Part shown: positions 2,347 through 62,259 of the stretch, piece by piece
How the letters are laid out: every line of letters starts with the position of its first letter
Numbering within the stretch: the first letter of the stretch is position 1
Source of the DNA: a virus
Lineage: Duplodnaviria; Heunggongvirae; Uroviricota; Caudoviricetes
Length of the DNA stretch: 64,000 bases
Strand: one strand, 5' to 3'
Virus record (IMG/VR): IMGVR_UViG_3300028888_000086
Position numbers and translations under genes: made by a program
The notes under the pieces: generated by a model
Seen by the model: only the letters and a program-made list of their open reading frames with translations
Told to the model about the DNA's origin: nothing
Database searches by the model: none

Positions 2347-2379
2347 CTAGGTTTTTAATTTCCCAGCTACTTTTATTTT

Positions 2380-3018
2380 TTACATTAATTCTTCATTATA
2401 AACTCTTAATTTTTGTAATCTAAAGTATCTATCTAAACATTTAAATCTTGTTAAAAAATACTGTTTTCTATCTACTTCACCTGATCCACCATAAGAGATA
2501 AATATATCTTCAAAATCTATGTAAGTTTCATTTAATATTAATCTTAAATTTCCATTTTCTAGATATTTTTTAGCAGTACCAGGTTGTAATTCTGCTAATG
2601 ATATATGTGGAGTATAACTATCAAAATCACTACTTACATCATATTTATTTCTTAATCCCTTATTAATATTAAATAATCTTAAATAAAAATCAGTATTCTT
2701 TTTTAGTTTTAATATAATATAATCAGAATCATTTTCAAAACTACTTAATTCAAAAAAATTCAATACTTTAAATGCACATTCTTTTTTACATAAACTTAGT
2801 AATTTATAATAATCTTCATCTCCTAATATTGTTTTTATATCAGGTAATACTTCTTGTTTATTTACTATTTTTCCTTGTGCAAATAGTAAAGTTATATGAG
2901 AGTCCAATTCAACACCCGTATCCTTTAGATCAGTTGTATCGAAAACACAACCAAGATCTACGGGAGTCATTAAATTTACACCTAGCATTAAACAGCTATT
3001 AATTTCTTTATTTTCCAT
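2380..3018 (-). CDS. 2H phosphoesterase superfamily protein (LigT / 2'-5' RNA ligase / cyclic phosphodiesterase-like)
   Basis: Two H-x-T/S-x motifs at the spacing expected for 2H enzymes: DSHITLLFA and YTPHISLAEL; ~210 aa, typical size. Confidence 0.5.
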   Translation of the reverse strand: MENKEINSCLMLGVNLMTPVDLGCVFDTTDLKDTGVELDSHITLLFAQGKIVNKQEVLPDIKTILGDEDYYKLLSLCKKECAFKVLNFFELSSFENDSDYIILKLKKNTDFYLRLFNINKGLRNKYDVSSDFDSYTPHISLAELQPGTAKKYLENGNLRLILNETYIDFEDIFISYGGSGEVDRKQYFLTRFKCLDRYFRLQKLRVYNEELM

Positions 3019-6567: not shown

Positions 6568-6571
6568 CTTT

Positions 6572-6919
6572 TTATACTAATGATTTTATATTGATTTGTT
6601 TATACTCACAATCAACTGAATTAAAGAACTCCTCTAATTCATTCTTTATTTTATCTTTTATATCCCTAGCAGCAACATACTCACTCATAGGTAATTCTCC
6701 ACTACATCTTATAAATGCACTATAAGATACTAAATAATTATACGTATCTTTTAATTGATATATAACTAACTTTACAGAAAATCTATCATATTTTTCTGGT
6801 ATACTATTCTTTAAAGTTTCGTATAATATATCTCTGGCTTTTGTAATACTTGGATCTAAATTGTCTTCTAATATGTTGTAAGGAATTTCATAAGATAATA
6901 AAATTTCAAAATAATTCAT
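6572..6919 (-). CDS. hypothetical protein between rpoC and rpoB
   Basis: 115-aa ORF in RNAP operon context. Confidence 0.5.
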   Translation of the reverse strand: MNYFEILLSYEIPYNILEDNLDPSITKARDILYETLKNSIPEKYDRFSVKLVIYQLKDTYNYLVSYSAFIRCSGELPMSEYVAARDIKDKIKNELEEFFNSVDCEYKQINIKSLV

Positions 6920-6933
6920 AAACTTTAAAATTC

Positions 6934-7146
6934 TTAAAACTCTGCTGAATCCATAAAGTTATTAGAATTAGCAGATTTTGATTTAACTGTTGCCTTCTTT
7001 TTTATAGCAACTTCTTCTTTCTTGTCAACTGATGGGGTAGTAGAATTAACAACTACTACCTCACCATTCTTTATTGACAATTTAATATTCAAATTTAATT
7101 CATCCTCAAAATTTGGAATCTCTAAACTTAAATTTAAAACTTTCAT
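6934..7146 (-). CDS. hypothetical small protein
   Basis: 70-aa ORF in RNAP operon. Confidence 0.4.
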   Translation of the reverse strand: MKVLNLSLEIPNFEDELNLNIKLSIKNGEVVVVNSTTPSVDKKEEVAIKKKATVKSKSANSNNFMDSAEF

Positions 7147-7147
7147 T

Positions 7148-9244: not shown

Positions 9245-10736
9245 CTTGATATTCAAGCAGTTACGTTACTTCTGCCTCGTTCTCTTATGAACTGCTATAT
9301 GTCTCCATATAGAATAGACTATATCTTCATTATTAAATTTCTTAATAATGTTCCGCTTTTCCACTTACGATTTTAGTGTACTCCTGTAAAAGGATAGTCG
9401 TTGAGGAACAATAAACTTATTAGTCAGATAAGTTTTTTATTTCTTTAAATAATTCATCTAGATCTTCATATACTTTATAAGGATACTTGAAATCACTGTC
9501 TGACTTAGTTTTTATAATATTTGAGTAATAGAATACTCGTAAACCATGTTCTAAACAAAGATTTCGTTTATTATCATCCATTTTAACTCTTTCTTCAAAA
9601 GTATATTTTTTATCAAAAAATTCAGTTGGTTTAAAATGTTGTAATCCTTGACACTCTATAACTGCATTAAAGTCGGGTAAGTAAAAATCTACGTGCTGTT
9701 TTCTTTTATACTTTAACCAATCCCAGGTATATTGTTTTATTATATTAATATTATTATCTTTACAATATAATTCAATATCAACTTCTAAAATAAATCTATC
9801 TCCACAACTAGGACATCCACAATTACTTAAATGTATAGATGGTTGCTGCCAAAACGGTCCATGAGAATTACATATTATCTTAACTGGTGTAGTACAATTT
9901 ACGTACTCAACTTCATCATATCCATAAGTATCTTTATGTATTAATTTTGCGCGACGTATAAATTCTTCAGTATTAATATTAACTCCACCATTACACTCTG
10001 AACACCCATGTCCATATAAATGATCATGTGGTCTTTGAGTAAATTCTTTTTTACACCTATTACAAATCAATTTAACTGGTGTATTGATATTTACATAATT
10101 TACTTCACTGTAATCATATTTATCTTCGCCATGTACTTTTTTAGCTGCTTCTATAAAACTTTCTGTTGTGTATTTTTTATATGGACTTGGATTACATTCT
10201 TTACATCCACATCCCTGTAAAATATCAACCGGCTTAATTTCAAAATACCCATGTATATCACAATTTAGTATAACAGGCGTACTACTATTAATATAATTAA
10301 CTTTATTATATCCGTATCTATCTCCATGAATCTCTCTAGCCTTTTCTATAAACTGTTCCTGTGTATATTTTACTCCACCTTTACAGTTAGGACATCCTTG
10401 TCCACAGAGATGATTGTGTGCAGTCTGAATAAATTCATTTCTGCACTTATTACAAATTATAATAACTTTATCTTTACTTGATGTATAATTTACTTTGCTA
10501 TAATCATATTTATTTTCACCATGTACTTTTTTAGATCTTTCTATAAATTCTTCTGTTGTATATTTTTTCATTATAATTTTAGTTTATATAATTTATTTAT
10601 ATTGTTCCTGCTGATTTTCTCTATTTTATGAATTTTTAGGGTAGGTGACTAAATCCTACATTAACCTCCTATCATAAACCTAGCGAGAGTTTCCAGCATT
10701 TAACGGAATTTTAAAACACCAATTTTAAAATATTTT
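9245..10736 (-). mobile_element. group I intron B of rpoC (family 1), ~1.49 kb, carrying a homing-endonuclease ORF in a peripheral loop just upstream of P7
   Basis: R UUCCUCAACGACUAUCC (~9393-9409) and S GAAGAUAUAGUCUAUUC (~9311-9330) lie downstream of the ORF stop. The intron ends ...AUCAAG before GAU UUU GAC. The 5' exon ends in U (GCU). Confidence 0.65.
9420..10571 (-). CDS. intron-encoded homing endonuclease-like protein: 4 tandem Zn-ribbon repeats plus C-terminal Vsr/PD-(D/E)xK-like nuclease domain
   Basis: The repeat YT.E.FIE...K.HG..YDYS.VNY....P..I.C..HG.F.Q.P..HL.G.GCP.C occurs 4 times. The C-terminus has HVDFYLPDFNAVIECQGLQHF (DFYLP..N.AIE..G.QH). Confidence 0.75.
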   Translation of the reverse strand: MKKYTTEEFIERSKKVHGENKYDYSKVNYTSSKDKVIIICNKCRNEFIQTAHNHLCGQGCPNCKGGVKYTQEQFIEKAREIHGDRYGYNKVNYINSSTPVILNCDIHGYFEIKPVDILQGCGCKECNPSPYKKYTTESFIEAAKKVHGEDKYDYSEVNYVNINTPVKLICNRCKKEFTQRPHDHLYGHGCSECNGGVNINTEEFIRRAKLIHKDTYGYDEVEYVNCTTPVKIICNSHGPFWQQPSIHLSNCGCPSCGDRFILEVDIELYCKDNNINIIKQYTWDWLKYKRKQHVDFYLPDFNAVIECQGLQHFKPTEFFDKKYTFEERVKMDDNKRNLCLEHGLRVFYYSNIIKTKSDSDFKYPYKVYEDLDELFKEIKNLSD

Positions 10737-10814
10737 AGCGTTTAATGGACTACATATGGAGATTGGGAATCTAAGTACATAATCACCATCTCCAGGTTCA
10801 TTTAACCTAACTTT
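10737..10814 (-). CDS. rpoC: rpoC mini-exon 2 (78 nt), encoding KVRLNEPGDGDYVLRFPISICSPLNA
   Basis: It encodes exactly the ~26 aa missing between ...RPPTLH (exon 1) and DFDGD (exon 3). It aligns to bacterial [29 protein letters not shown]. It is preceded by G (10815) and ends in U. Confidence 0.7.
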
Positions 10815-13566: not shown

Positions 13567-13654
13567 GGAGAGGTGCCGAAGTTGGTCATAACGGCCTAGA
13601 CTTGAAATCTTGTGTGTCTTTATAGACCCGTGGGTTCGAATCCCACCCTCTCCG
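13567..13654 (+). tRNA. tRNA-Ser(UGA), class II with long variable arm
   Basis: Acceptor GGAGAGG/CCTCTCC, D-arm GCCG...CGGC, anticodon loop CTTGAAA, T-arm GTGGGTTCGAATCCCAC. Confidence 0.8.
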
Positions 13655-13678
13655 CTTTCAAAATAAAATAACAAAAAT

Positions 13679-34863: not shown

Positions 34864-35865
34864 TTATTTATCATTTATTAGACTGCTTGAATATTGAGAA
34901 ATTACTTGACATTCAGCTGTATTTCTAAAAGTATCTAAATCTCGAGAATTACAATATGACATAGCAGAACATAAGTAATCATGCATATTTTCTACCCATC
35001 CTTCTAAAGTATATTGTTTCTTTAATATAATTTCTCTCCCTTCTGATGTTTTTAATTCTGTAGATTTTTTACCCATTTGTTTTTGTGCTTTTTTAGTAGA
35101 CATTCCATAATAAGATACTGGATCACCTACATTTTCTCCTTTTTTAGCAGCTACAGTAAATAATTTTCCACACATTACATAATCAGCACCTAAAGCAATA
35201 CACTTTATAACCTCTGAATAACTAGAGATACCTCCATCAGCTATAATTTTACATTTACCTAATATTTTTGTTTTTATTTTTCTTATATCATCAAGTAAGG
35301 AAGCTAATGGATAGTGTACTCCAGTTTGCGTAGAAGATAAACAAGATGATCCCCCACCAATCCCCACTCTAATAAAATCCGCACCAGCATTTTCGTATTT
35401 TTCATAAGTTTCTGGATTTGCTATATTTCCTACCATTACAACAACATTAGTACCAAATTTATTTTTTAATTTTTTACATAAGTCTATTTGTTTTTTCATA
35501 TGTCCATTAGCTACATCAATTAAAATATGATATCTAATACTTTTTGCAGGTACAGGAAACTCTAATATATCTTCTACTTCTTTAATTGAAAAAGCACAAA
35601 AATATTTAGTCATTAATTCAACTCTTTTTTTAGATGATACTGTTCTAGGAATTATAACAGATATACCCAATTTATCATATTCCTTATAATTATTTTCATC
35701 TAATACACAGGACATAGGAGCAGTAATAAGAGGTAAATATTCTTCTCTTTTTCCAGTAATATCAAAACAAGTAGGATTACATTCAGATCTACTTTCAATT
35801 TCACTTATAACACTAGGAATAATACTAATATCCCTTAATGAATACAATGTTTCTTTATAAATCAT
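34864..35865 (-). CDS. guaC: GMP reductase / IMP dehydrogenase-family TIM-barrel enzyme (GuaC-like, no CBS domains)
   Basis: IDVANGH (IDVANGY), IRVGIGGGSSCLSSTQTGVHYPLASL ([27 protein letters not shown], catalytic Cys), ADGGI; ~333 aa. Confidence 0.65.
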   Translation of the reverse strand: MIYKETLYSLRDISIIPSVISEIESRSECNPTCFDITGKREEYLPLITAPMSCVLDENNYKEYDKLGISVIIPRTVSSKKRVELMTKYFCAFSIKEVEDILEFPVPAKSIRYHILIDVANGHMKKQIDLCKKLKNKFGTNVVVMVGNIANPETYEKYENAGADFIRVGIGGGSSCLSSTQTGVHYPLASLLDDIRKIKTKILGKCKIIADGGISSYSEVIKCIALGADYVMCGKLFTVAAKKGENVGDPVSYYGMSTKKAQKQMGKKSTELKTSEGREIILKKQYTLEGWVENMHDYLCSAMSYCNSRDLDTFRNTAECQVISQYSSSLINDK

Positions 35866-36012
35866 ATATTTTAATTATTTTAGTATTTTCATATATAAGA
35901 TTAGAGAGCATTTTAAAGAGCATTTTTTATATTTTAAAAATTAAGCCTGAAATCCTTAATTATGAAATGAATAAATTAATTATAATTAACAAACTTAAAA
36001 AAAATAAATGTT

Positions 36013-36576
36013 ATGAATTTTTATAGTTTTTATGGATTTATTGCGTTACTTACATCATTATTATTTTTAGGACAATTAGTTTTAGGTCTTATTGGCGGAC
36101 TTGATTTCGGAATTGATGTTGATGTTGATTCCGATACAGATCTAGATGTAAGTGCAGATAATGACGTTGGATTTGAGATTAGTTCTCTAGTATCACCAAA
36201 AGGAATATTACATTTCTTGCTTGGTGGGTCTTGGTATTTAGTTTTAGCTGAATATACAAGAGGAGGATCTTTAACCTGGTATGATTATTTAATAGCTATT
36301 GGAGTTGGTTTTATACTAGCTCTTATGATGGCATTGCTCTACTGGGGAATGAGTAAATTAGAGTCAGAAAAGAAAAAGGAATCCGGAGAAGATTTAGTTG
36401 GAAGAGGTGGAACTATTTATTTAGCATCGAATGAAAGTGGTATTCACATTATAACTACTGTAATAAATGGTGCCTCTACTGAATTAACCGTAAAATCTAA
36501 ATCTGGAAAAGAATATAAAACTGGTGATTTAGTTACAATCCAGAGTTATGAACAAGGAATTTATTATATTGAATAA
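36013..36576 (+). CDS. NfeD-like membrane protein (partner of SPFH/flotillin proteins)
   Basis: N-terminal TM helices, acidic linker, and C-terminal OB-like segment GRGGTIYLASNESGIHIITTVINGASTELTVKSKSGKEYKTGDLVTI. It sits immediately upstream of the flotillin gene, as in yuaF-floT. Confidence 0.65.
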   Translation: MNFYSFYGFIALLTSLLFLGQLVLGLIGGLDFGIDVDVDSDTDLDVSADNDVGFEISSLVSPKGILHFLLGGSWYLVLAEYTRGGSLTWYDYLIAIGVGFILALMMALLYWGMSKLESEKKKESGEDLVGRGGTIYLASNESGIHIITTVINGASTELTVKSKSGKEYKTGDLVTIQSYEQGIYYIE

Positions 36577-36618
36577 CCTTATAACTAACTTAATTATTAA
36601 CAACAAAATTCAAAAGTC

Positions 36619-38781
36619 ATGAGTACACAATTAATTTTTGTGATCGTGAGTATAGTAGCATTAGTGTTACTATCGACTGTTGTACTGATCTTAACTCGGT
36701 ACAAAAAATGTAAATCAGACGAACTTCTAATCGTCTATGGTAGAACTTCAAAAAAGAAACTAAGATCTGCCAAGGATGGTGAGAAGGTTGAAATCGATTC
36801 TAGCAACTGTAAGTGCATTCAAGGTGGTGCAAAGTTTATTATCCCAGTAATTCAGGGATATTCGATCCTTAAGATGACACCGAAACAAATTGTATGTAAC
36901 TTAACGAATGCTCTTGACCTTCAAAAGATTGAGACATCGGTTAAGACTGTTATTACTGTTGCTATTTCTAAGACTCCAAGCGTTCAAATTAATGCCGCGA
37001 CTAGATTATTAGGATTAGATGACAAAGAAACTAGTTCGCTCATAAGTGAGATCTGTTTCGGTTCTTTGAGACTAGTGGTTTCTGAGATGTTACTTGAAGA
37101 TCTTGTTAATTCGAGAGATAAGTTTTTGGAACTCTGTAAGACAAGAATTGGATCTGAACTTGAAAAGATTGGTTTTGACTTAATCAATATCAATATTTCA
37201 GAAATTTCCGATAATGCTCACTACCTAGAAAATCTTGGTAAGAGTGCTGAGGCACGTGCTACATTTACTGCAAAGAGTGAGATTGAAAAGCGTACTAAGG
37301 AAGGTGAAATCGCGATAGCCACTCAGAAACAAGAGAAGGAAGTAAAACTCTCTGAAATTTCTCGTGATAAGGAAATTCAAGTTTCTGAAAACAAGAAACA
37401 GCAGGATATTAGAACTGCTGAAATTGAACGTGATAGGGTTACCACAACGGAAACAACTAAGAAGGAACAGGAAGTTTCTCTTAGGGATATCGAACGTGAG
37501 AAAAAAGTTCAAATAGCTGAGAAAGCCAAAGAGGAAACAGTTAAGATTCGTGAAGTTGAAAAGAATCAAACTTTGGAAACAGCCTCACTTGAAAGAGAAG
37601 AGGCTGAAAAGAAGTCTGAAATTGAACGTGATAAGCAAATTACTATTGCAACGAATCAGAGTGAACAAGCCCAGAAAGTGGCTGAACAAGAAAAACTTAA
37701 ACAATCTGAAGTTGCAAAACAATCTGCTGAGGCTCAAACTGCTGTTGCTACCGCTAATGCAGAACGTGATGCTAAGATTGCTGAACAAGAATCAAAATCT
37801 GAGGCGGCCCAAGCTAAATCTCGTCAAGATGCAGCAGCTAGTGTAGTAGAGGCTGAACAAAATGCTGAAGCTAGAAAAGAAACTGCTAAACAAGAGGCTA
37901 TAGCTAAGAAGAAAGAGGCTGAACAAAAATCAGAATCTGCTCAGGCTAAGGCTACTCAAGAGAAAGAAGCTCAAATAGCAGAATATGACTCTAGTCGTCG
38001 TAAGAGAACAGCTGAAGCAGATAAAACTGCTACAATTACGGAAAATACTGCTGGTATTGAAATTGCAAAATCAGATGCTCAGTTAGGTAAGGAACAAGCT
38101 GAGTCTCAGAAAATCATTGGTGAGAGTAAAGCTCAGTCTGAACAGGCTATTGGTATCGCCCAAGCCAGGAAGGATGAGGAAATTGCAGTAGCTCAGGCTA
38201 AGGCAGAAAAAGCCAAGCAGGAAGCAACTATCATGGTTGGTACTGAAATTGAGGCCGACAGAAAGAGAACTGAAGCTAAAGGTAAGAAGGATTCTACTAT
38301 TACTGAAGCTGAAGGTGAAGCCGAAGCAATTAAATTGAAAGCTTTTGCAGAAGCTGAAGCAATTAAGGCTAAAAAACTTGCAGAAGCTCAAGGAGAACTT
38401 GCTCTTGCAGAAGTACAAAAAGTACTTGAAGCAGCTAAATCCGAATCTTTGGCGAATCTTGCAAAAGCTAATGTTGCTGCAGAAGCTCAAATTAGTTGGA
38501 TTCTTAGAGATCAGTATGCTGAGATGATTGAAGCTGATTCAAAGAAATTTGAACATCTTACAACAGGTGATATCAAGATTATTGGTGGTACTGATACTGC
38601 TGGTAAGTTTTTGAAAGACACCGTTCAAGCTGTTCAACAATCTTCAATGCTCAGTGAATTTTTACCAGGTCTTGGAGGAGTTTTAGGAAAATTGGATAAA
38701 TTCGATAAAAAGAATCAAGTCCAATCGAGTGAAAATTCAGAGCAATTAGAAGCTCCAGAAGAACCTGAGTCAAAAGAATAA
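36619..38781 (+). CDS. floT: flotillin-like SPFH-domain protein with long E/A/K/Q-rich coiled coil (FloT/YuaG-like)
   Basis: N-terminal TM helix, SPFH-like region, AEAEAIKAK...AEAQ flotillin-type EA repeats, and conserved C-terminal IIGG.D. GC is ~40% against ~25% in the surroundings. Confidence 0.75.
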   Translation: MSTQLIFVIVSIVALVLLSTVVLILTRYKKCKSDELLIVYGRTSKKKLRSAKDGEKVEIDSSNCKCIQGGAKFIIPVIQGYSILKMTPKQIVCNLTNALDLQKIETSVKTVITVAISKTPSVQINAATRLLGLDDKETSSLISEICFGSLRLVVSEMLLEDLVNSRDKFLELCKTRIGSELEKIGFDLININISEISDNAHYLENLGKSAEARATFTAKSEIEKRTKEGEIAIATQKQEKEVKLSEISRDKEIQVSENKKQQDIRTAEIERDRVTTTETTKKEQEVSLRDIEREKKVQIAEKAKEETVKIREVEKNQTLETASLEREEAEKKSEIERDKQITIATNQSEQAQKVAEQEKLKQSEVAKQSAEAQTAVATANAERDAKIAEQESKSEAAQAKSRQDAAASVVEAEQNAEARKETAKQEAIAKKKEAEQKSESAQAKATQEKEAQIAEYDSSRRKRTAEADKTATITENTAGIEIAKSDAQLGKEQAESQKIIGESKAQSEQAIGIAQARKDEEIAVAQAKAEKAKQEATIMVGTEIEADRKRTEAKGKKDSTITEAEGEAEAIKLKAFAEAEAIKAKKLAEAQGELALAEVQKVLEAAKSESLANLAKANVAAEAQISWILRDQYAEMIEADSKKFEHLTTGDIKIIGGTDTAGKFLKDTVQAVQQSSMLSEFLPGLGGVLGKLDKFDKKNQVQSSENSEQLEAPEEPESKE

Positions 38782-38825
38782 TAAAATTAGAATAGATAAG
38801 AAATAAAATCTTATCTATTCTTTTA

Positions 38826-38846
38826 TTAAGAAAAAAAAGAAAGGCT
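38826..38846 (+). terminator. GC hairpin AAAGGCTCAAAGGCCTTTTTT after floT-like gene
   Basis: Palindromic AGGCCT core plus T-run. Confidence 0.6.
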
Positions 38847-38954
38847 CAAAGGCCTTTTTTAAAATTTGATAACGGTTTCCAGGTTTAACCTGGTTATTTA
38901 TATAATTTGTAGTGTCTTATATCGCTTTTTCTACTATTATGCGGGTAATTATTT

Positions 38955-39143
38955 TTACCAATCTTCGCCGCTAAATAGCGACACAATTACCATCACTGCA
39001 ATAATGGGCCAACAAAGTCCTGTTATACAGCAACGAATGACTCCCTTAAGAGTACTACTTTCGGGATGTACTAATACCCCGACAATCATGGCTATGATAG
39101 CCGATATGATTAAATATAAATAAACAGTCATAAAACAATACAC
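38955..39143 (-). CDS. small hydrophobic membrane protein (62 aa), relatively GC-rich
   Basis: Driven by the minus-oriented promoter at 39233-39252 plus a 5' hairpin. Sequence MTVYLYLIISAIIAMIVGVLV. Preferred over the overlapping plus-strand ORF 38866-39123. Confidence 0.5.
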   Translation of the reverse strand: MYCFMTVYLYLIISAIIAMIVGVLVHPESSTLKGVIRCCITGLCWPIIAVMVIVSLFSGEDW

Positions 39144-39199
39144 TATTTTTTACAGAGGTTGTGGTTCCTCTTTTAGTTAATATTTGATTACGATACAAA

Positions 39200-39900
39200 A
39201 AAAAATAAACAGATATATTAATTTACCTGTTTACATATATAAGGCTTTCAAGGATTATTAAACGGTCGAAAATTTAAAGCCAAAAAAAATCAATTAAAAT
39301 ACTTAAATTTATAATTGAATATCAGGCTTTTATTACTACGACCGAAATTAATAAAACACACTTTATAAACATTAAAAATCTTATAAATAGAAAAAAAGAA
39401 CCCAGCTTTAATGCCGAGAAAGAAATTTAGGTTTTCTTATTATATTAGAAGTTATTGTTTTCTTAATTTAATTTTGACTTCACTTATTATTGATTTATAG
39501 TTATATCGTTTTGTGAATTTAATATAATCTAAATCTTTTATTCTTAGTCTAGGTAATATCATAACAACACCTCCTTTCAAATTTTTACCTAGGGTTCTTT
39601 TACCAGCAATGTTATATTTTGCTGGTTTTTTTTGTTAATAATTTCGAAAATAAAAATAAACAAGTATTTAATTTACCTGTTTACATATATAAGGTTTTGA
39701 AGGATTATTAAACGGTCGACACTTTAAAGCCAAAAATCAATTAAATACTTAGATCTATAATTGAATATTCTCGGCTTTTATTATTACGACCGAAATTAAT
39801 AAAACACACTTTATAAACATTAAAAATCTTATAAATAGAAAAAAAAGAAAGAACCCAAGATTAAACTTAGGAAAGAAAGAATAATTTGCTTTCTTATCTA
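39200..39900. repeat. two tandem ~250-bp repeat copies (~39200-39445 and ~39648-39900; period ~450 bp). Each holds a minus-oriented promoter plus TSS hairpin and a conserved structured element (nested stems CGGTCG...CGACCG / AAAGCC...GGCTTT) with an identical 60-nt block
   Basis: Direct sequence comparison: cgaccgaaattaataaaacacactttataaacattaaaaatcttataaatagaaaaaaa is identical in both copies. Confidence 0.7.
39500..39610 (-). CDS. small ORF (~35 aa, MILPRLRIKDLDYIKFTKRYNYK...) with the only canonical Shine-Dalgarno (GAAAGGAGGTG) seen in the window
   Basis: Downstream of the repeat-copy-2 promoter on the minus strand. The SD sits 7 nt before the ATG. Confidence 0.35.
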
Positions 39901-40489: not shown

Positions 40490-41107
40490 TTAAATAACCT
40501 CCCCAGATTTTTGCTTGTTTATGAAATTTATTACAAAGCTAAATGTAAATAGTTTTCCATCCTTGAAGAAACCTAGTCTTATGTTCATTAGTTCTTCTAC
40601 GGATTTCTTGCCCATACCATCAGCATTCTTGTCAATATTGAAGTAAAATAAGTCTCCTATAGCATTCCATGCAGTTCTTTTATAACTCTTCTCTTTTTTC
40701 TCTTCCCAATCTTTCCACTTGAGTCCACGTTCTCCCATATAAGTTCTTTCATATTCCTCTTCATGGCGATCGATACAGTTTATCAATCTAACTGAAATAT
40801 TATTTTTATTATGGTACTTCATTAAATCTACCAAATTCATAGATTTAAGCATCACTAATGAGTTGTTATCCAGCTCATCAGATAATACTTCATATAGATT
40901 TAAAAGTTTCTTCTCATTCTCAAGTTGTTTTAATTTTGAGAGAGTTACTAATCCTCCATCTCTTATTTCTCCTTCTTTTCTTATTTGTTCAACTGTCTTT
41001 AGCCCTCGCATTTCCATAACAAGGCTTTTCAAGTCTTTTACCTTTATTGTGATTGTGTCTTCTGGATCACAATTATCACAAATAATTTTAATCGTTTCAT
41101 AATTCAT
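40490..41107 (-). CDS. hypothetical protein
   Basis: 205 aa; promoter (minus) at 41232-41252 with a 5'-UTR module. Confidence 0.55.
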   Translation of the reverse strand: MNYETIKIICDNCDPEDTITIKVKDLKSLVMEMRGLKTVEQIRKEGEIRDGGLVTLSKLKQLENEKKLLNLYEVLSDELDNNSLVMLKSMNLVDLMKYHNKNNISVRLINCIDRHEEEYERTYMGERGLKWKDWEEKKEKSYKRTAWNAIGDLFYFNIDKNADGMGKKSVEELMNIRLGFFKDGKLFTFSFVINFINKQKSGEVI

Positions 41108-45650: not shown

Positions 45651-45894
45651 TGTTAGCCCCTCTATATAGTGATATATAGAGAAAATCCTGAATATGCTGG
45701 AAACTCCTAAAGCTTTATCTACCAAAGTGTGAAAATGATAAAGATATTACAATGGACAATCAGCAGGGATAACTCTGTAAAAAGAGAAGCCCTCAACGAC
45801 TACCAAGGGACATCTAAAATAAAATTAGATGAAGGTATAGTCTAAACCCAAAATAAAATATCTCGAAAGGGAGGGTATCAATTGTATCACACAA
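45651..45894 (+). mobile_element. group I intron 1 of polA (family 1, no ORF; boundaries +/-30 nt)
   Basis: R CCUCAACGACUACC (~45790-45803) and S GAUGAAGGUAUAGUCUAAACCC (~45829-45850) on the plus strand. These are reverse complements of the rpoB/rpoC intron elements. Confidence 0.6.
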
Positions 45895-46529
45895 TAATCT
45901 CAAAATCAGATATAAAAAGTACCATTTGTTCTTATCCAGGACATTTATTAAGTTATTTTGATATAAGTTCAGCGGAGGTAAAGAGTGCTGGATTTATGTC
46001 GAAAGACGAAAACTTAATAAATATGTTTAAAAATAATATTGATGTATATATAGCAACAGCAAAATCGTATCTTCAAGATAGATGGGATACATTAACTAAA
46101 AAAGAGCAAAAAGCATTTAGAAAAACATTTAAAACTGTTACACTTGCACTTATTTACGGGCAGGGCGTTAATGCCCTAGCTAGTAGATTAAACATTACTA
46201 AGCAGGATGCTCAAGCTATTGTAGATCAAGTTTATACTTCTTATCCAAAACTTAGAGAATATATTAAAGAACAACAAGAATATCCATTACATCACAACGG
46301 AAGAGTGCGAACTTTCTTTGGAGATGTTTTGGTTGCAGAAGAATGGAAATATTATTTAAAAGCTACAGATCCATATGAAAAAAAAGCATTAGCCGCTCGA
46401 ATTGGCAGGGCTGGGAGCAACTATCCCATACAAGGTGGCACGAGCCTGGCGATGAGCAGTGGTTTCTTTAACGACCTACGAGTAGCAAAACAAGAAGGTT
46501 GGGATTTAACAAGTTTTATAACGGTCCAT
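45895..46529 (+). CDS. polA: family A DNA polymerase exon 2 (motif A through motif C His)
   Basis: SYFDISSAEVK (DYSQIELR), TLALIYGQGVNALASRL...YTSYPKLREYI (motif B/O-helix region), NYPIQGGTSLAMS, ending ...TVH| at the H of the catalytic VHDE. Confidence 0.8.
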
Positions 46530-46815
46530 AAGTAAAATTGTGGCATACTGAAGTAATTTAGTATGAAAAAGATTGTGAACTCATATATGTGAGGTGTCTA
46601 AGAAAATAAAAAATCTTAGGCTAACGGTAAAAGCTAAGTTAGAAATAATATGCTAATACCGTGCCAAGTCAGAAATGAAAGGTGTAGAGACTATCCTTTA
46701 TGGAGTAGGTTTATAGTGAAATTCTATATTCCGAAGTGCAATCCATCTTGCAATATAGATGATGATATAGTCCAGCTCTAATGGAAACATTAGGAGAAAG
46801 CGGATTCTAATACTT
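46530..46815 (+). mobile_element. group I intron 2 of polA (family 1), inserted inside motif C between His and Asp
   Basis: The 5' exon ends CAU. R GGUGUAGAGACUAUCC (~46678-46693) and S GAUGAUGAUAUAGUCCAGC (~46759-46777) are nearly identical to rpoC intron A. The 3' end is approximate. Confidence 0.6.
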
Positions 46816-47227: not shown

Positions 47228-48850
47228 TTATTTGGTTTTATATGTATTAATCTCTTTTATCAGACCCTCTTTATTAGTTATTATTGGCGAAAAATAATTT
47301 GATATGCTATTATTTATAAGTACTTTCTCTTCTTTTCCAGCACCAGATAAATTGGGATCATAATAATAAAGAATTTTTATATTGTGTTGATTACATAAAT
47401 TATACTTTGTTAAATCTCTTTTATACCCTTCATTAAATGCTAGTAAACCTCCAAAATAATCTACTGGAATAAAATGTTGATCTCCATGAGCTTCTATAGC
47501 TATGTTAAAGTCTTCTAAATAAAAATCTAGTTTTAAATTTTTATTATATTTTAGCCACGTAAATGTTTTCTGAAAGTGATATTTTATTTTTAGTTCGTCT
47601 AATATCTCTCTAACTGAGTTTTCTAGCATTGAAATTATTTCATCTACATATACTAATTGTTCAGGAAGTGTTAATGATTTTCGATAAAGAGAATAGTATC
47701 TCTTTTGAAATTCCGATGGATTTTTTATATTATTTGTATTTATAAACTCTTGAAATTCTTGTACAGTATTTATATTATCAATTAATCCATTTGGTAAAAA
47801 TTTTTGTATTCTATTTGGATAGATAACTTTTGAAGTTAGTTTAAGATGTGTTAGCCTACTATAGATATCATTAAATCTTTTTCTAAAATCAGAAGGAGAT
47901 TGTATATTTTCTTTATTTATCAATTCTTGGAAGTCTGTTTCAGAATTGTACTTTTTTAATTCTGAATTAGATTTTGGTCTTAAAGGAAACTCTAATTTTG
48001 AATCCCACTTATTTCTTAGTATTTTAGCATACATAGACATATTAGACCTTCTTATTTCATCTAAATATACTATTTTATTTACTATTATATAATTTTGTAT
48101 ATAATCAAAAGTATATAAATCTAATTCCGAGTTTTGTAATTTTAATTCTGTATATCCAACATCTTCAGATTTTATGCCAAGCTTCCTCATACGTTTATCA
48201 ACTTTAGGGAACCTATTTAACATATCAGCTACATTCTTAATATTATTCTCTTCTATGAATTTCTTGAAGTCTTCAATTGTATTTAATTTCGAAGTATCTA
48301 ACCATCCAGGAAATGTTAATAGTCTATTTCCCTTCTTAAGATATCCAAAGTCCAGTGCCCATTTATACTCAGTTTTATAATTTTCTCGAAAGTCCTTTGG
48401 GCTAGATATATTATTATCGTTAATAAACTTCTGAAATTCTTCTATAGATCTTAATTTATTTTCCCTTTCGTATTTTAATGGATTTTTATATTTTATCTCT
48501 TTAGCTAGATGTTTTCCAACTAATTTTTTATATGTTGAGGGAAATCTGGAATTAAAGTCTGAATAATTCTCTATATTGTTCTCGTCAACAAATTTTTGAA
48601 AGTCTTCTAAATTATTCAGATTTTTATTCGTTTTAAAATCTCTAGTCTTTTCAGTATACACTACATCATCATTGAACTTCAGATATTTAAGTCTACTATG
48701 AACCTTAAGATATCTTTTCTTTAAATCAGAGTTACTTTTTATATTGTTATTCGCAATAAATCTCTGAAAATGATCTAATTCTGTGAAATCTTTTGCATTT
48801 ATTTCATCATTAGATACTCCAATTTTGTCAAAACTTTTTATATTATTCAT
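47228..48850 (-). CDS. homing-endonuclease-like protein: 6 N-terminal ~40-aa repeats plus C-terminal Vsr/PD-(D/E)xK-like nuclease (paralog of the rpoC intron ORF nuclease domain)
   Basis: Repeat (L/I)E(D/E)FQKFI.ENNI....DF..R(F/Y) occurs 6 times. The C-terminus has LKLDFYLEDFNIAIEAHGDQHF. Confidence 0.7.
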   Translation of the reverse strand: MNNIKSFDKIGVSNDEINAKDFTELDHFQRFIANNNIKSNSDLKKRYLKVHSRLKYLKFNDDVVYTEKTRDFKTNKNLNNLEDFQKFVDENNIENYSDFNSRFPSTYKKLVGKHLAKEIKYKNPLKYERENKLRSIEEFQKFINDNNISSPKDFRENYKTEYKWALDFGYLKKGNRLLTFPGWLDTSKLNTIEDFKKFIEENNIKNVADMLNRFPKVDKRMRKLGIKSEDVGYTELKLQNSELDLYTFDYIQNYIIVNKIVYLDEIRRSNMSMYAKILRNKWDSKLEFPLRPKSNSELKKYNSETDFQELINKENIQSPSDFRKRFNDIYSRLTHLKLTSKVIYPNRIQKFLPNGLIDNINTVQEFQEFINTNNIKNPSEFQKRYYSLYRKSLTLPEQLVYVDEIISMLENSVREILDELKIKYHFQKTFTWLKYNKNLKLDFYLEDFNIAIEAHGDQHFIPVDYFGGLLAFNEGYKRDLTKYNLCNQHNIKILYYYDPNLSGAGKEEKVLINNSISNYFSPIITNKEGLIKEINTYKTK

Positions 48851-52418: not shown

Positions 52419-55400
52419 ATGAGAAAAAATAATGGAAAAGAAATTATGCCAGAAGAAATGTTAAGAAACTATATGATTTCTAAAGGCGTGGATAAAGCAA
52501 TAGATATAACTATAGAGTGGAATAAAGTAAAAAAGAATTATAACGGAGAGTATTTTATTCCTGATAGTAATTATGTAAAAAAGATTTTTGGTAAAACAAT
52601 ATTTGAATTCCTAAACATGAGTAAAAAAGGTAAAATGAAAAATGCAATGCCTGAGGATATGTTAAGGAATTTAATGATTGAAAACGGTGTTGATAAAGCA
52701 ATAAATATAAAAAATGCATGGAATAAAGTAAAAAAGAATTATAACGGAGAGTATTTTATTCCTGAATCGACATACGTAATAAAAACTTATGGTAAAACAA
52801 TACATCAAATTTTATGTATACCTACATTATCATCTCTTATGCCAGAGGATATGTTAAGGGATTTGATGATTGAAAACGGTGTTGATAAAATAAGAAACAA
52901 TCGAAAAATTTGGGATAAAATAGTGGATAAATATGATGGAGAATATTTTATTCCAAAATCAACAAATGTAAAAAGGGCTTATGGTAAAACAATACATCAA
53001 ATTTTAAATATGTCTTTGATCATGCCTGAGGATATGTTAAGGAATTTAATGATTGAAAACGGTGTTGATAAAGCACAAGATAAATGGAGAGAGTGGAATA
53101 AAGTAAAAAAGAATTACAACGGAGAGTATTTTATCTGTAGCTCTGGAGGTGTAAAAAGAATTTATGGAAAGACTGTATATGAGTTTTTTAATGAATTAGG
53201 ATATTATTTAAAAGAACGAGTTATTAATTTTCTTTCACTCCACATTGAAGACCTAGCTATGATGGATAAACCAGAGCTTCTTCAGTTAGGAATGTTAGGA
53301 GATTTGCCGAAAGAAGAACATAAAAAACTCATTGACTATCCTAAAGGGGAAGAGAAAGTAGGATTTATTAAAGAAATGGTTGAACGTCTAAAAAATCCTA
53401 AAGAAAATCAAGAGGAGGTAGAGACGTTTAATGAATTTCTAAATGAAGATGTTGATAAACCTGAAGAAACAGAGTCTTCTAATAAAGAAGAAACTGAATT
53501 TGAAAAAGGGCTTCATAAAGGATTAGAAATTGTTGAGAATTCTAAATCATATAACTTAGAAAAGCAAATCTCAGATCTTTTTGGTGGATTGAATGCTTTA
53601 GGTAATTTCAAACATAGTGATTTTACTAGTGAGGAAGCAATAGATTATATTGTAAGTTTCGAAATTCAGAAACTTTGGAATATAGTCATCTGCAATCCCA
53701 CCGAAGCTATGAGATTAATTGAAGAACAAATGCTTCAAAGAGGGAGTAGTGAGTTTTTCAGGAAAGTTATTAATGAGTTTATAAGACAGCATAATGAAGT
53801 AATTAATTTTATAATTCCGGATGGTTATTCATTTCCGTTCCAACCAACTTTAATGCAAAAATTGACTGCATTTATGGTTCTAGAAAAAGAACAGACAGCT
53901 AATTGGAGTGAAACTGGTTCGGGAAAAACTTTATCTGGAGTTCTATCATCAAGAGCTATAGATTCAAGAATAACTTTTGTAATAGCCGTAAACTCAACTA
54001 TAAATAACTGGACAGATGATGCTATTAAAAAAGCTTATCCAGACAGTAAAGTTTATAGAAAGAGTAATATAACAGATACTACAATTTTAGATAGAAATTT
54101 TCATAATTACGTAGTAGTTAATTATGAGGAGTTCCAAAATTCTAATAAATTCTTGAATAAATGGAAACCGTTCTTGATAAATAATAAAGTAGATTTTGTT
54201 ATCTTAGATGAAATTCAAAAAGTAAAAGCGAATAGTCGAGATAGCATGACTAACCGAAGAATAGTCATAGAAAATCTACTACAAGAGATAGACAAGAAAT
54301 GTGGTCGTGATTTAGAAAAAGAAGGTCGTAAAGTACCTATTCTTGCTCTATCTGCTACTCCTGTGATCAATAGTGTTAATGAGGGATTATCTATTATATC
54401 TCTCTTAAGGGGGATAGATTATACTAGTAAAAGAAATACTAGAAAGTCTGCATTAGCTTGTCATTTTGATATAGTTAAAATGGGCTTAAGACTAGTTGAA
54501 GAATCTCCTGCTATTGAGAAGTTAATTACATTCCCAATAAAAAGGGATATAAAAGATATTTCTGGAATTAATATAAAAGGAAATAAAAACTTCTTAGTCG
54601 CTATTGATGTTTGTGGTTGCTTGATTAAAATTGGAGAGTGCATCAGAAGAGGATATTTACAGCCAGGAATTCCTACTGTAATTTATACTGAATTAGTTAC
54701 TGATGTTATTGATCCTATTATTGGATTTCTTCAAGCAAACAATTTCAGAGTTGGTGAATTTACTGGTAGAAATGAAAGTACAAGAGAGATAATAAAAGAA
54801 GGTTTTATTGCAGGTAAATATGATGTATTAATTGCATCTAAACCAATTACAACTGGTGTAAATGGATTACAGAAAGTATGCAATAGGATTATTCCGATAG
54901 TTCTCCCGTGGACTTATGCAGAATATCATCAACTTATTGGAAGATTAAATCGTAAAGGAACTATATTTGATGAAGTACAGGTTATAATACCTACCATCGA
55001 GTATACTAATTCCGACAATGAAGTTTGGTCGCTTGATAATAATAGATTAGCTAGAATACATTATAAACAAATATTAGCTGATGTTATTATGACTGGAAAT
55101 ATTCCTGATGATATAATAACTACAGAACAAGCTTATAAATTAGCTAAAGATAAATTTCTTACCTTTATAAATAATGAAGGAGGTAGTGAAAAATCTAGGG
55201 AAATTCCAGTACAAGCAGCTGAACTTAAACCTGCACCACCTAAAGCAAGACCTGAGGGACAAGGAAATCAGAGAGATTACTTTTCTGAATTTCAAGGTAT
55301 TAATCAAAGAATATCAACCTCAACTTGTGATGGTGTATTTAGTAAGATCTTCAAAAATAAAGAAGATTGGGAAAATTACCACAACTTAAGAGAAAAGGCA

Positions 55401-55847
55401 ATTGGACAAAACCAGCCGCTAAAAATTATATCTCAAGATTTCTTAAAGTCTAAAAAACATAAGATTATTGGAGATATGGGATGTGGTATGAATCAGTTTA
55501 AAACATTATTACCAGAAAACTATGAAGTTATTTCTGTGGATATGTATGCGGCTGATGATACAGTGAAAGTATGTAATCTTATGGATACCTCAAAAATTAT
55601 TCCAAATGAAAGTTTAGATATCGCAGTATATTGTTTATCATTATGGAGTAGAGATTGGAGAGAAATTTTAAAAGATGCATACAGAATTTTAGATTATGAT
55701 GGAAAGATTATAATAGTTGAACCTGTTAGCTCATCATCGAAAAGTATTGATAAAATGAGACAAACCTTAATTGAAAATGGATTTACAAACATTTCAACAA
55801 CTAAGGATGGAGAAGATAAATTCTATTATATGACAGCCAATAAATAA
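52419..55847 (+). CDS. giant multidomain protein: 4 N-terminal ~55-aa repeats, then SF2 helicase, then C-terminal class I SAM-dependent methyltransferase
   Basis: Repeat MPEDMLRNLMIENGVDKA...WNKVKKNYNGEYFIP...YGKTI occurs 4 times. Helicase motifs GSGKT, ILDEIQ, LSATP, TTGVNGLQ. MTase motifs IIGDMGCGMN (motif I) and IIIVEP (motif IV region). Confidence 0.75.
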   Translation: MRKNNGKEIMPEEMLRNYMISKGVDKAIDITIEWNKVKKNYNGEYFIPDSNYVKKIFGKTIFEFLNMSKKGKMKNAMPEDMLRNLMIENGVDKAINIKNAWNKVKKNYNGEYFIPESTYVIKTYGKTIHQILCIPTLSSLMPEDMLRDLMIENGVDKIRNNRKIWDKIVDKYDGEYFIPKSTNVKRAYGKTIHQILNMSLIMPEDMLRNLMIENGVDKAQDKWREWNKVKKNYNGEYFICSSGGVKRIYGKTVYEFFNELGYYLKERVINFLSLHIEDLAMMDKPELLQLGMLGDLPKEEHKKLIDYPKGEEKVGFIKEMVERLKNPKENQEEVETFNEFLNEDVDKPEETESSNKEETEFEKGLHKGLEIVENSKSYNLEKQISDLFGGLNALGNFKHSDFTSEEAIDYIVSFEIQKLWNIVICNPTEAMRLIEEQMLQRGSSEFFRKVINEFIRQHNEVINFIIPDGYSFPFQPTLMQKLTAFMVLEKEQTANWSETGSGKTLSGVLSSRAIDSRITFVIAVNSTINNWTDDAIKKAYPDSKVYRKSNITDTTILDRNFHNYVVVNYEEFQNSNKFLNKWKPFLINNKVDFVILDEIQKVKANSRDSMTNRRIVIENLLQEIDKKCGRDLEKEGRKVPILALSATPVINSVNEGLSIISLLRGIDYTSKRNTRKSALACHFDIVKMGLRLVEESPAIEKLITFPIKRDIKDISGINIKGNKNFLVAIDVCGCLIKIGECIRRGYLQPGIPTVIYTELVTDVIDPIIGFLQANNFRVGEFTGRNESTREIIKEGFIAGKYDVLIASKPITTGVNGLQKVCNRIIPIVLPWTYAEYHQLIGRLNRKGTIFDEVQVIIPTIEYTNSDNEVWSLDNNRLARIHYKQILADVIMTGNIPDDIITTEQAYKLAKDKFLTFINNEGGSEKSREIPVQAAELKPAPPKARPEGQGNQRDYFSEFQGINQRISTSTCDGVFSKIFKNKEDWENYHNLREKAIGQNQPLKIISQDFLKSKKHKIIGDMGCGMNQFKTLLPENYEVISVDMYAADDTVKVCNLMDTSKIIPNESLDIAVYCLSLWSRDWREILKDAYRILDYDGKIIIVEPVSSSSKSIDKMRQTLIENGFTNISTTKDGEDKFYYMTANK

Positions 55848-61770: not shown

Positions 61771-61774
61771 TGTG

Positions 61775-61848
61775 TCGGAACGAAAGGATTTGAACCTTCG
61801 ACATCTTGGTCCCAAACCAAGCATTCTACCGAGCTGAATTACGTTCCG
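61775..61848 (-). tRNA. tRNA-Pro(UGG)
   Basis: Acceptor CGGAACG/CGTTCCG, anticodon arm CTTGG TTTGGGA CCAAG, T-arm GAAGGTTCAAATCCTTT. Confidence 0.8.
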
Positions 61849-61876
61849 AAGTTTTTTGTTATTTGTTTTGAAAATG

Positions 61877-61962
61877 CGGAGGCTACTGGGCTCGAACCAG
61901 TGCGTCCTTTCAGACCTACCAGTTTAGCAAACTGGCCCCTTCACCAACTTGGGTAAGCCTCC
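61877..61962 (-). tRNA. tRNA-Ser(GCU), class II
   Basis: Acceptor GGAGGCT/AGCCTCC, anticodon arm CCAGT TTGCTAA ACTGG, long variable arm, T-arm CTGGTTCGAGCCCAG. Confidence 0.8.
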
Positions 61963-61979
61963 ATTTGTTATTTATCTTG

Positions 61980-62052
61980 AGTAGTAGACGGGTCTCGAAC
62001 CCGCGACCTCGAACTTGGAAGGATCGCGCTCTACCAACTGAGCTACTACTAC
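61980..62052 (-). tRNA. tRNA-Gly(UCC)
   Basis: Acceptor GTAGTAG/CTACTAC, D-arm GCTCAGTTGGTAGAGC, anticodon loop CTTCCAA, T-arm GCGGGTTCGAGACCCGT. Confidence 0.75.
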
Positions 62053-62078
62053 TTGTTATATTTATGATGTGAAACTTT

Positions 62079-62162
62079 TTACAAATAGTAGAAGTGGGTG
62101 GATTCGAACCACCGAACCTATAAAGGAGCGGATTTACAGTCCGCCGCAATTGACCAACTATG
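62079..62162 (-). tRNA. tRNA-Tyr(GUA), bacterial-type with long variable arm
   Basis: Acceptor AGAGGTG/CACTTCT (one G.U), anticodon arm GCGGA CTGTAAA TCCGC, T-arm GGTGGTTCGAATCCACC. Confidence 0.75.
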
Positions 62163-62259
62163 CGACACCTCTACAATCACCAACTATAAGGATTTCAAGG
62201 CTTTCAAACTGCAATAAATAAAATATAAAATAAAGGGATAGAATAAATCCCTTTATCAA

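Follow-up and report, generated by a model that had tools for sequence, protein, structure and literature searches.

A conserved Bacteroidales-type operon encoding a flotillin and a predicted NfeD-type partner in large phages

A 64,000 nucleotide (nt) stretch of Caudoviricetes DNA (IMG/VR record IMGVR_UViG_3300028888_000086), the whole of which is referred to here as the window, contains two same-strand open reading frames (ORFs) at positions 36013–36576 (ORF1 or gene 1; 187 amino acids (aa)) and 36619–38781 (ORF2 or gene 2; 720 aa) that lie 42 nt apart. These very probably constitute a phage operon for an NfeD-type membrane protein followed by a flotillin-type SPFH protein, one that has resided in phages for a long time. 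The pair is a phage member of a known operon family, and the module is old, conserved and common to hundreds of large phages rather than recently stolen from a host. The overall explanation that we favour, with somewhat better than even confidence, is that of a long-resident and functional SPFH2-NfeD2 operon of the Bacteroidota/Bacteroidales type that belongs to a large, AT-rich phage of the gut type and whose products would make a membrane-stabilising cage. An earlier reading of the DNA without database searches (the sequence-only reading) had placed two adjacent genes at 36013–38860; the ORF map agrees with this, the end at 38860 falling in a region of hairpins 3' of the second gene.

A conserved two-gene module in large phages

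Relatives of the pair were confirmed on at least 253 IMG/VR contigs, 80 of which were retrieved for examination of the loci, mostly contigs of 58–435 kb with three on fragments of 8–27 kb. A hidden Markov model search of all ORFs in the loci placed a gene of the ORF1 family immediately upstream of the flotillin gene, on the same strand, in all 80 viral loci and in 76 out of 80 bacterial loci; the four bacterial exceptions include two at contig ends. The spacer between the two genes is typically 4–45 nt in relatives. Metagenome relatives 60–76% identical to ORF1 and 56–74% identical to the flotillin were found on contigs of up to 372 kb and more distant ones, in which adjacency was kept, on contigs of up to 408 kb. 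A scan of one genome per species resulted in roughly 600 bacterial matches, the best being in Bacteroides, Phocaeicola, Parabacteroides and Prevotella at 36–40% identity, while flotillins of other Bacteroidota were about 33% identical to the window protein. Across the viral loci the only conserved neighbours were the pair itself (a GMP-reductase-like gene was present in one locus). As no neighbours are shared, there is no guilt-by-association clue to function.

Loci that are similar in one of the two genes are similar in the other as well (Mantel test on pairwise identities, r = 0.83, p ≤ 0.001), meaning that the two have been inherited together. Relative to contig L170 (logan:SRR17284449_21912), a close relative in which positions 855–3018 correspond to window positions 36619–38781, residues 1–433 of the flotillin are 95% identical with a nonsynonymous divergence (dN) of 0.034 and a synonymous divergence (dS) of 1.08 (dN/dS 0.03). 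The NfeD protein is 69% identical (dN 0.24, dS 1.46, dN/dS 0.16). The C-terminus of the flotillin is about 43–51% identical to that of L170; here dS is saturated and dN and dN/dS were not used. Since dS is near saturation and dN/dS is low, the module is old in this lineage and functionally constrained, and strong purifying selection acts on the pair, which is conserved as one unit.

The flotillin of L170 is read as two ORFs of 434 aa and 182 aa. Pseudogenisation was rejected as the reason, as the split comes down to a single frameshift in an A-run (KKK) of a short-read assembly with the downstream frame intact, and is probably an assembly error. Conservation relative to L170 is strikingly uneven. 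DNA similarity ends at window position 38393 and the genes downstream differ, a pattern that suggests a recombination junction inside the 3' end of the flotillin gene.

A neighbour-joining tree was built from 53 dereplicated flotillins. All phage copies grouped with Bacteroidales chromosomal copies, apart from those of other Bacteroidota, and the window flotillin fell in a deep, long-branched clade of large phages.

A flotillin-type SPFH protein

The start of gene 2 was assigned to M1, which is invariant across 23 homologues. The Pfam Band_7 domain (PF01145) was detected at 54.1 bits against a cutoff of 23.6 bits (E = 2.6e-14, aa 61–226) and was matched by 23 out of 23 aligned relatives. The only PDB sequences matched were flotillin-1 and flotillin-2 (E = 5e-9 to 5e-6). 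When the AlphaFold model was compared to known structures with Foldseek, ranks 1–5 were all flotillins, followed by HflK/C, prohibitin, stomatin and erlin. Both sequence and predicted structure place the protein nearer to flotillins than to stomatins, prohibitins or HflK/C.

Gene 2 starts with a hydrophobic segment, LIFVIVSIVALVLLSTVVLILT, that is modelled as an N-terminal membrane anchor helix (aa 2–26; 36622–36696, + strand, as for all parts of the two genes given below). The SPFH/Band_7 domain follows at aa 28–200 (36700–37218) and was modelled at a predicted local distance difference test score (pLDDT) of 81–91 over aa 81–200; it holds a lineage-specific, low-confidence insert at aa 42–61. 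Superposition on the Band 7 domain of flotillin-2 (1win) gave a target-normalised TM-score of 0.74 at a root-mean-square deviation (rmsd) of 2.6 Å. Next comes a coiled coil of about 415 residues that is rich in E, A and K (aa 202–616; 37222–38466), modelled as helices 202–287, 295–510 and 517–616. These three residues are the commonest in the protein, with E, A and K occurring 99, 93 and 87 times in 720 positions. The transmembrane (TM) helix, SPFH region and long EA-rich coil that the sequence-only reading had described for the second gene were accordingly all recovered, and fold searches returned flotillin for ORF2 and NfeD for ORF1.

Self-similarity analysis of the coil showed a hendecad periodicity, with lags of 11, 22, 33, 44 and 55 residues scoring z = 9.9, 9.6, 6.2, 7.5 and 4.6. 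Flotillins of jumbo phages span 640–720 aa compared to 542–566 aa for Bacteroidales and the phage csAssE-Sib and a median of 518 aa for other bacteria. The extra length is located in the middle of the coil, which exceeds that of cellular homologues by 100–200 aa, and many of the insertions and deletions are multiples of 11. The expanded hendecad coil is, along with the codon bias described below, a lineage-specific trait of the phage flotillin. The C-terminal region (aa 617–720; 38467–38778) is the fastest-evolving part of the protein and is homologous to a stretch of the csAssE-Sib flotillin that matches Pfam Flot.

A predicted NfeD-type partner

The start codon of gene 1 is backed by an N-terminal alignment with 21 homologues, and an AlphaFold2 model was built from 22 homologues (pLDDT 78). 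In the model a first predicted TM helix (aa 6–29; 36028–36099), which is hydrophobic in sequence, is followed by an acidic DxDxD(G) loop (aa 30–55; 36100–36177) that is predicted to be disordered, with pLDDT below 50 at residues 30–51. Two further predicted TM helices at aa 62–82 and 89–116 (36196–36360) contain a conserved PKGxxHF...G motif, and K63, G64, F68, G71 and G99 are invariant in this region. The third helix leads into a hydrophilic linker rich in K and E (aa 117–131) and a C-terminal beta domain of the oligonucleotide/oligosaccharide-binding (OB) type with five strands (aa 125–187; 36385–36573; strands at 132–186), which is the type of domain that binds the partner in NfeD proteins. 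SPFH-associated NfeD proteins have been defined by three N-terminal hydrophobic segments and a short hydrophilic linker (PMC2636767), and the layout of gene 1, with helices taken from the model, agrees with this definition in having three helices, a short linker and an all-beta domain.

Of the eight best matches that Foldseek gave for gene 1 in the PDB, six were NfeD proteins (8z5g YbbJ, 3wwv, 2k14 YuaF, 2k5h, 3cp0 and 2exd), at modest E-values of 3e-4 to 4e-2. The best match over the full length was YbbJ of the QmcA-YbbJ complex (8z5g; 138 aligned columns), and the OB domain superposed on 1510-C of P. horikoshii (3wwv) with a target-normalised TM-score of 0.76 and an rmsd of 2.4 Å over 65 columns. 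By sequence the gene 1 protein had no match in Pfam, NCBIfam or PHROG even at E ≤ 10, the NfeD (PF01957) and YqiJ models included. The narrow family profile A1 returned only spurious TM matches among PDB sequences and was set aside. A profile widened with bacterial members (A4, 42 members) had YuaF as its top PDB sequence (E = 9e-4) over the OB domain (YuaF residues 15–77). Twelve of the 42 family members matched Pfam NfeD, at best with E = 2.7e-5, a link that is only transitive for the window protein. Fold search, broadened profile and operon context together identify gene 1 as a putative partner of the NfeD2/YuaF type. The sequence-only reading of an NfeD-like protein with a C-terminal OB segment thus stands with respect to fold and the three TM helices, though Pfam and NCBIfam do not recognise ORF1. 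Neither the Pfam scan nor the model contained a ClpP-like protease domain, as in the short NfeD2 type.

The DxDxD(G) loop connects TM1 with TM2; its residues D43 and D45 are invariant in alignments A1 and A2, and D41 is almost so. The motif is kept from phage to Bacteroides, including the partner protein of Bacteroides salyersiae, and to other Bacteroidota. The loop resembles cation-binding DxDxDG loops.

Base composition and residence of the operon

The operon region has a GC content of 36.2% compared to 27.1% in the rest of the window. The sequence-only reading had given about 40% against about 25% and noted a different codon usage, from which a recent capture from a host was suggested. The rise is real and yet smaller than stated, and the codon usage differs for only one of the two genes. 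Expected GC was calculated by recoding each protein with the background codon usage of the window. For ORF1 the GC was 31.9% observed against 31.8% predicted, and GC at third codon positions (GC3) was 16.0%, which equals background (z = 0.15). For ORF2 it was 38.2% observed against 34.0% expected from amino acid composition, with a GC3 of 24.6% against 15.0% expected (z = 7.6). Amino acid composition accounts for about half of the GC rise.

The GC3 excess of the flotillin gene recurs in other phages. Out of 18 viral lineages tested, 11 had an excess confined to the flotillin (z = 3.6–20.3) and in eight of these 11 the adjoining NfeD gene was at background. Many of the lineages with the excess are only 32–50% identical to the window flotillin, and in bacterial flotillin copies the excess was weaker. 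The window flotillin favours GGT, CGT, CTT and AAG and avoids ATA, TTA and AGA, a set that it has in common with distant phage flotillins, unlike the flotillin gene of Bacteroides salyersiae, which favours CTG/TTG, GTG, ACG and GAC. The signal looks like gene-specific translational selection, with a codon bias of the kind seen in highly translated genes. It is not residual donor composition because the bias recurs in distant phages and because the codon set is unlike that of the Bacteroides flotillin. The raised GC would then stem from an E/A/K-rich composition and translational codon selection and not from recent foreign origin. More generally, where GC rises locally in an AT-rich phage, the cause may be amino acid composition and translational selection instead of recent transfer. 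The tRNAs of the phage do not explain the bias, as its Gly(TCC) tRNA reads GGA/GGG and not the favoured GGT.

A recent horizontal capture, in which the operon is a new moron that has kept the GC and codon usage of its donor, is very unlikely and largely refuted for the window. The raised GC of the region and the GC3 of the flotillin are what such an event would leave behind, and the nearest cellular homologues, those of Bacteroidales, have loci of 39–54% GC. The search for a host donor proposed in the sequence-only reading does lead to Bacteroidales, but at no more than the 36–40% identity given above, and no match to the operon DNA was found among GenBank phages in a nucleotide search. The NfeD gene has native codons even though it diverges together with the flotillin, the gene predates the split from L170 (dS ~1.1), and the pair is intact in every viral locus examined. 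The flotillin-only bias in distant phages, the codon set unlike that of Bacteroides and the share of the GC rise that is due to amino acid composition also argue against a new arrival.

In the related contig L008 (jgi:3300037455 Ga0394157_0000045) the pair does look like an island, an appearance that favours recent capture. This genome is TGA-recoded with a GC content of about 29%, and the flanking T2SSF, peptide deformylase, Memo and PGA_cap genes contain 6–28 in-frame TGA codons each. The pair (6473–10760; 39% and 49% GC) and one adjoining ORF have no in-frame TGA. Here the pair would be either a standard-code island, in which case it arrived by true and recent transfer, or part of an early region in which a recoded phage keeps the standard code.

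Two other ORFs in the window, at 40490–41107 (− strand) and 45882–46535 (+ strand), also have a raised GC3 of 29.8% and 23.0% (z = 3.9 and 3.0). The codons that they prefer are not those of the flotillin, ATA and GGA still being common, and the window therefore holds more than one kind of compositional outlier.

Relation to known flotillin systems

A gene of the NfeD type lies directly upstream of a flotillin-type gene in yuaF-floT (yuaG) of B. subtilis and in yqiJ-yqiK of E. coli (SPFH2/NfeD2), as it does in the window. The sequence-only reading had recognised the yuaF-floT arrangement, of which the window pair is indeed a phage-borne counterpart. SPFH2 and NfeD2 partners are known to co-evolve (Hinderhofer et al. 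2009, PMC2636767), and "giant" SPFH2 proteins with expanded coiled coils were described in the same paper. The soluble domain of YuaF is both the best PDB sequence of the ORF1 family profile and among the top fold matches. The window operon belongs to a phage rather than to a stress regulon of the sigma-W type.

The closest cellular counterpart is the Bacteroidales chromosomal operon, exemplified by Bacteroides salyersiae DSM 18765 (NZ_KB905466.1, L090), which has the same gene order and strand as the window. Its partner protein has three TM helices, the acidic DxDxD loop and an OB domain and is 34% identical to ORF1 (E = 8e-27). Bacteroidales flotillins are 38–40% identical to that of the window and form the closest cellular branch in the tree. 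They are 542–566 aa long against 720 aa in the window, the phage coil being about 150 aa longer, and the operons differ further in codon preferences and in cellular context.

On the complete genome of phage csAssE-Sib (OR575929.1) a gene annotated "transmembrane protein" comes before one annotated "flotillin family protein", and their products are 31% and 37% identical to the window proteins. Together with about 20 IMG/VR relatives it shows that the module is established in gut phages. Unlike the window flotillin, that of csAssE-Sib is 566 aa long with a detectable Pfam Flot domain and unremarkable codon usage (z = 1.3). The csAssE-Sib group adjoins the Bacteroidales chromosomal copies in the tree, a position that suggests a separate, later acquisition of this copy.

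Other phage SPFH proteins fall outside the Bacteroidales-type clade. The ORFs of T4-like (44RR, Aeh1, RB43) and Vi01-like (PhiSH19) phages are about 260 aa and consist of the SPFH domain only. In Vibrio phage KIT04 (LC487410.1, L002 4680–6350; Demerecviridae, T5-like), the gene in front of a 473-aa annotated flotillin encodes an 82-aa TM protein, and a partner of the ORF1 family was not detected; pairing of flotillin and partner is therefore not universal among phages.

Phage SPFH ORFs have been listed since 2006 and recent papers call their role unclear. The searched literature contained no functional study of a phage flotillin or of a flotillin-NfeD pair, only passing annotations. As far as this literature goes, phage flotillins are uncharacterised, as had been assumed in the sequence-only reading; GenBank entries do label them as flotillins (csAssE-Sib and KIT04). 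The paper on phage Perkons was discarded as a source on phage flotillins, since "flotillin" refers there to integration into the host floA gene. A paper on huge gut phages (PMC12880540) does not mention the flotillin-NfeD pair.

Proposed assembly and function

The two proteins may be considered in light of solved structures of flotillin-1/2, HflK/C and QmcA-YbbJ, from which the steps of a possible assembly were drawn. The E. coli QmcA-YbbJ complex (8z5g) and the cage of eukaryotic flotillin-1/2 (9bq2, 9l3g) serve as templates, and only single-chain models were made here. QmcA is of the stomatin type (SPFH1) and not a flotillin, while eukaryotic flotillins lack both a TM helix and an NfeD partner, and their coil is far shorter than that of the window flotillin. 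By analogy, flotillin made in large amounts during infection, as its codon usage would imply, would be anchored via its N-terminal helix on the cytoplasmic face of the host inner membrane and would oligomerise to a closed dome with the SPFH domains on the membrane, the hendecad coil as wall and the C-terminal region as cap. The phage-specific expansion of the coil would result in a taller dome. The NfeD partner with its three TM helices would be situated in the enclosed membrane patch, where its OB domain could bind flotillin. Assembly of such a cage with the NfeD partner is, on the strength of these analogies, reasonably probable.

What the cage would do is the most speculative part, and the roles suggested in the sequence-only reading, which were rafts for replication or assembly and superinfection exclusion, are speculative too. 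It may fence or stabilise patches of host membrane through the long infection of a large phage, such that membrane integrity and energisation are kept, or it may organise phage or host membrane proteins. This membrane-stabilising role is put forward tentatively and with less than even confidence.

Several observations weigh against the explanation or parts of it. Gene 2 matched the NCBIfam FloT model (NF058507) with E = 1e-28 and 100.7 bits, below the equivalog cutoff of 700 bits. A Bacteroides homologue likewise fell under this cutoff with 153 bits; by its sequence gene 2 is related to FloT yet is not a FloT orthologue. Pfam Flot (PF15975) was not detected in the window flotillin at E ≤ 0.01, while it was matched by the homologous stretch of csAssE-Sib (E = 2e-9) and by three out of 23 relatives. 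The single-chain AlphaFold model of gene 2 is weak overall (pLDDT 62.5, predicted TM-score 0.31). GC3 was not in excess in L001 (the csAssE-Sib group), L010, L015, L030, L046, L053 and L055 (z of −2.0 to 1.8), and L087 had a z of −5.0. Codon bias is the sole ground on which we infer high expression, and it is not uniform, being strongest in the SPFH part (30.4% GC3 against 14.0% expected over aa 1–230), contrary to what a pure expression model predicts. The tree has no bootstrap support values, which leaves the direction and number of transfers between host and phage uncertain, and the role of the cage is likewise one that we infer.

Regulation of proteolysis is an alternative role. The cage would trap or modulate host FtsH or another membrane enzyme, like HflK/C or the flotillins of B. 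subtilis do with FtsH, and phage proteins would be stabilised or host quality control shut down as a result. Solved SPFH cages enclose FtsH (the fold matches include 7wi3 and 9cz2), SPFH1, 3 and 4 proteins interact with FtsH and NfeD is named for links to membrane proteases (PMC2636767), and the gene 1 fold match 3cp0 carries the annotation "implicated in regulation of membrane protease activity". We nevertheless regard this role as unlikely, as ORF1 is of the short type that has no ClpP-like domain, the best match of gene 2 is to the flotillin subfamily and not to HflK/C, and no protease gene was among the conserved neighbours of the viral loci.

Another alternative is competition between phages or counter-defence, where the scaffold would keep superinfecting phages from injecting their DNA or weaken abortive-infection effectors of the host that act by depolarising the membrane. 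The product is located in the membrane and belongs to a large phage with many accessory genes, the SPFH gene of Vi01-like phages adjoins a superinfection-exclusion gene (PMC3220722), and a self-contained two-gene module without conserved neighbours is typical of accessory or competition cargo. No defence model in PADLOC-DB was however matched by either protein (zero families at E ≤ 0.01), for which reason a reading as a defence system was discarded. The low dN/dS of the SPFH part and the likeness to housekeeping bacterial operons are unlike what is seen in fast-evolving arms-race genes, even if evolution is faster in the C-terminal region of the flotillin and in the NfeD gene. Competition or counter-defence is accordingly quite unlikely.

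Extending the favoured explanation of a membrane-stabilising cage, large Bacteroidales phages may deploy their own abundant and extra-tall flotillin cage with its NfeD partner as a virus-specific compartment at the inner membrane of the host, an idea that we consider doubtful at present. Such a compartment could sequester membrane patches and thereby preserve the membrane potential against abortive-infection effectors, or it could organise ion pumps, lysis control or membrane-associated sites of replication or assembly. The invariant DxDxD(G) loop might add sensing of a cation such as Ca2+; a Ca2+ P-type ATPase has been reported from huge gut phages (PMC12880540). If the idea of a viral compartment is true, SPFH cages would be a class of organelle for viral host takeover that has so far gone unrecognised. 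Many bacteria have flotillin/NfeD operons, the function of which is still under debate. The long retention in phages at a dN/dS of 0.03 implies a benefit within a single infection cycle, which is a sharper experimental handle than the slow phenotypes of bacteria. A conserved module in abundant huge Bacteroidales phages that is absent from the searched literature also points to membrane remodelling as part of host takeover by huge phages.

Phage setting and flanking signals

The window has a GC content of 27.5% overall, with short genes on both strands and a standard genetic code. Scanning of its proteins identified a 619-aa fragment of RNA polymerase beta containing only Rpb2 domain 6 (Pfam Rpb2_6; phrog_3295), whose relatives in phage databases are confined to jumbo phages of Staphylococcus, Listeria and Bacillus at 23–30% identity. 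The fragment suggests a split gene for a multisubunit RNA polymerase. Two HNH homing-endonuclease genes are located near it (the three genes are at 3026–4885, 9420–10571 and 47228–48850, all on the − strand), and would be in keeping with reports that introns or inteins drive the fragmentation of genes in huge gut phages. There are five tRNAs, with tRNA-Ser(TGA) alone at 13567–13655 (+ strand) and the remaining four, Pro(TGG), Ser(GCT), Gly(TCC) and Tyr(GTA), in a cluster at 61774–62172 (− strand). By its sequence features, namely tRNAs, split RNA polymerase, standard code and low GC, the phage resembles the huge Bacteroides/Phocaeicola gut phages of PMC12880540, a resemblance that we treat as a lead. 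In the first 25 kb of the window the sole match to GenBank phages was a 270-nt endonuclease fragment of a crAss-like phage.

These features bear on whether the window could be a low-GC bacterial or plasmid segment with a chromosomal flotillin locus. A near-identical operon architecture is found on Bacteroidota chromosomes, and L061, a 25 kb contig listed as viral in IMG/VR, groups with the chromosomal copies of Bacteroides. A split RNA polymerase beta gene with relatives only in jumbo phages, PHROG matches to helicase and HNH homing-endonuclease families, the tRNAs, the presence of relatives on IMG/VR contigs of 100–435 kb, a GC content far under that of Bacteroidales loci and the match to the huge gut phages all argue to the contrary. 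A non-viral origin is hardly credible.

The operon is preceded by an AT-rich intergenic region of 147 nt (35866–36012), delimited by the ORF map and lying between it and a − strand GMP-reductase-like gene, that presumably holds the operon promoter. A scan for promoters of the sigma-70 type found 12 against 13.9 expected in shuffled sequences, and no promoter was assigned on this basis; promoters of the Bacteroidota type and of phage RNA polymerases were outside its scope. In the 42-nt spacer between the genes (36577–36618) no terminator-like hairpin was found on the + strand. Eight nt past the stop of gene 2 a terminator-like hairpin starts, with a 13-bp stem, a 7-nt loop and a T-rich tail (38789–38821, + strand), and two more short GC-rich hairpins (38840–38857 and 38879–38893) close off the transcription unit. 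Within 35700–39400 there are eight terminator-like sites compared to 1.7 ± 1.3 in shuffles. With no internal terminator and a hairpin straight after gene 2, the pair looks co-transcribed.

The window encodes two large helicases, and at 52419–55847 (+ strand) a 1142-aa protein combines a DEAD/ResIII helicase with a C-terminal Methyltransf_8 domain (E = 2e-23), an unusual fusion. The gene that diverges from the operon (34864–35865, − strand) belongs to the GMP-reductase/IMPDH family; its best NCBIfam match was GMP reductase (E = 4e-37, below cutoff), and it also matched phrog_9582, "dehydrogenase". In the related contig L006 a 52% identical homologue is separated from the flotillin pair by about 4 kb. 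Based on these matches the gene is a candidate auxiliary gene for nucleotide salvage.

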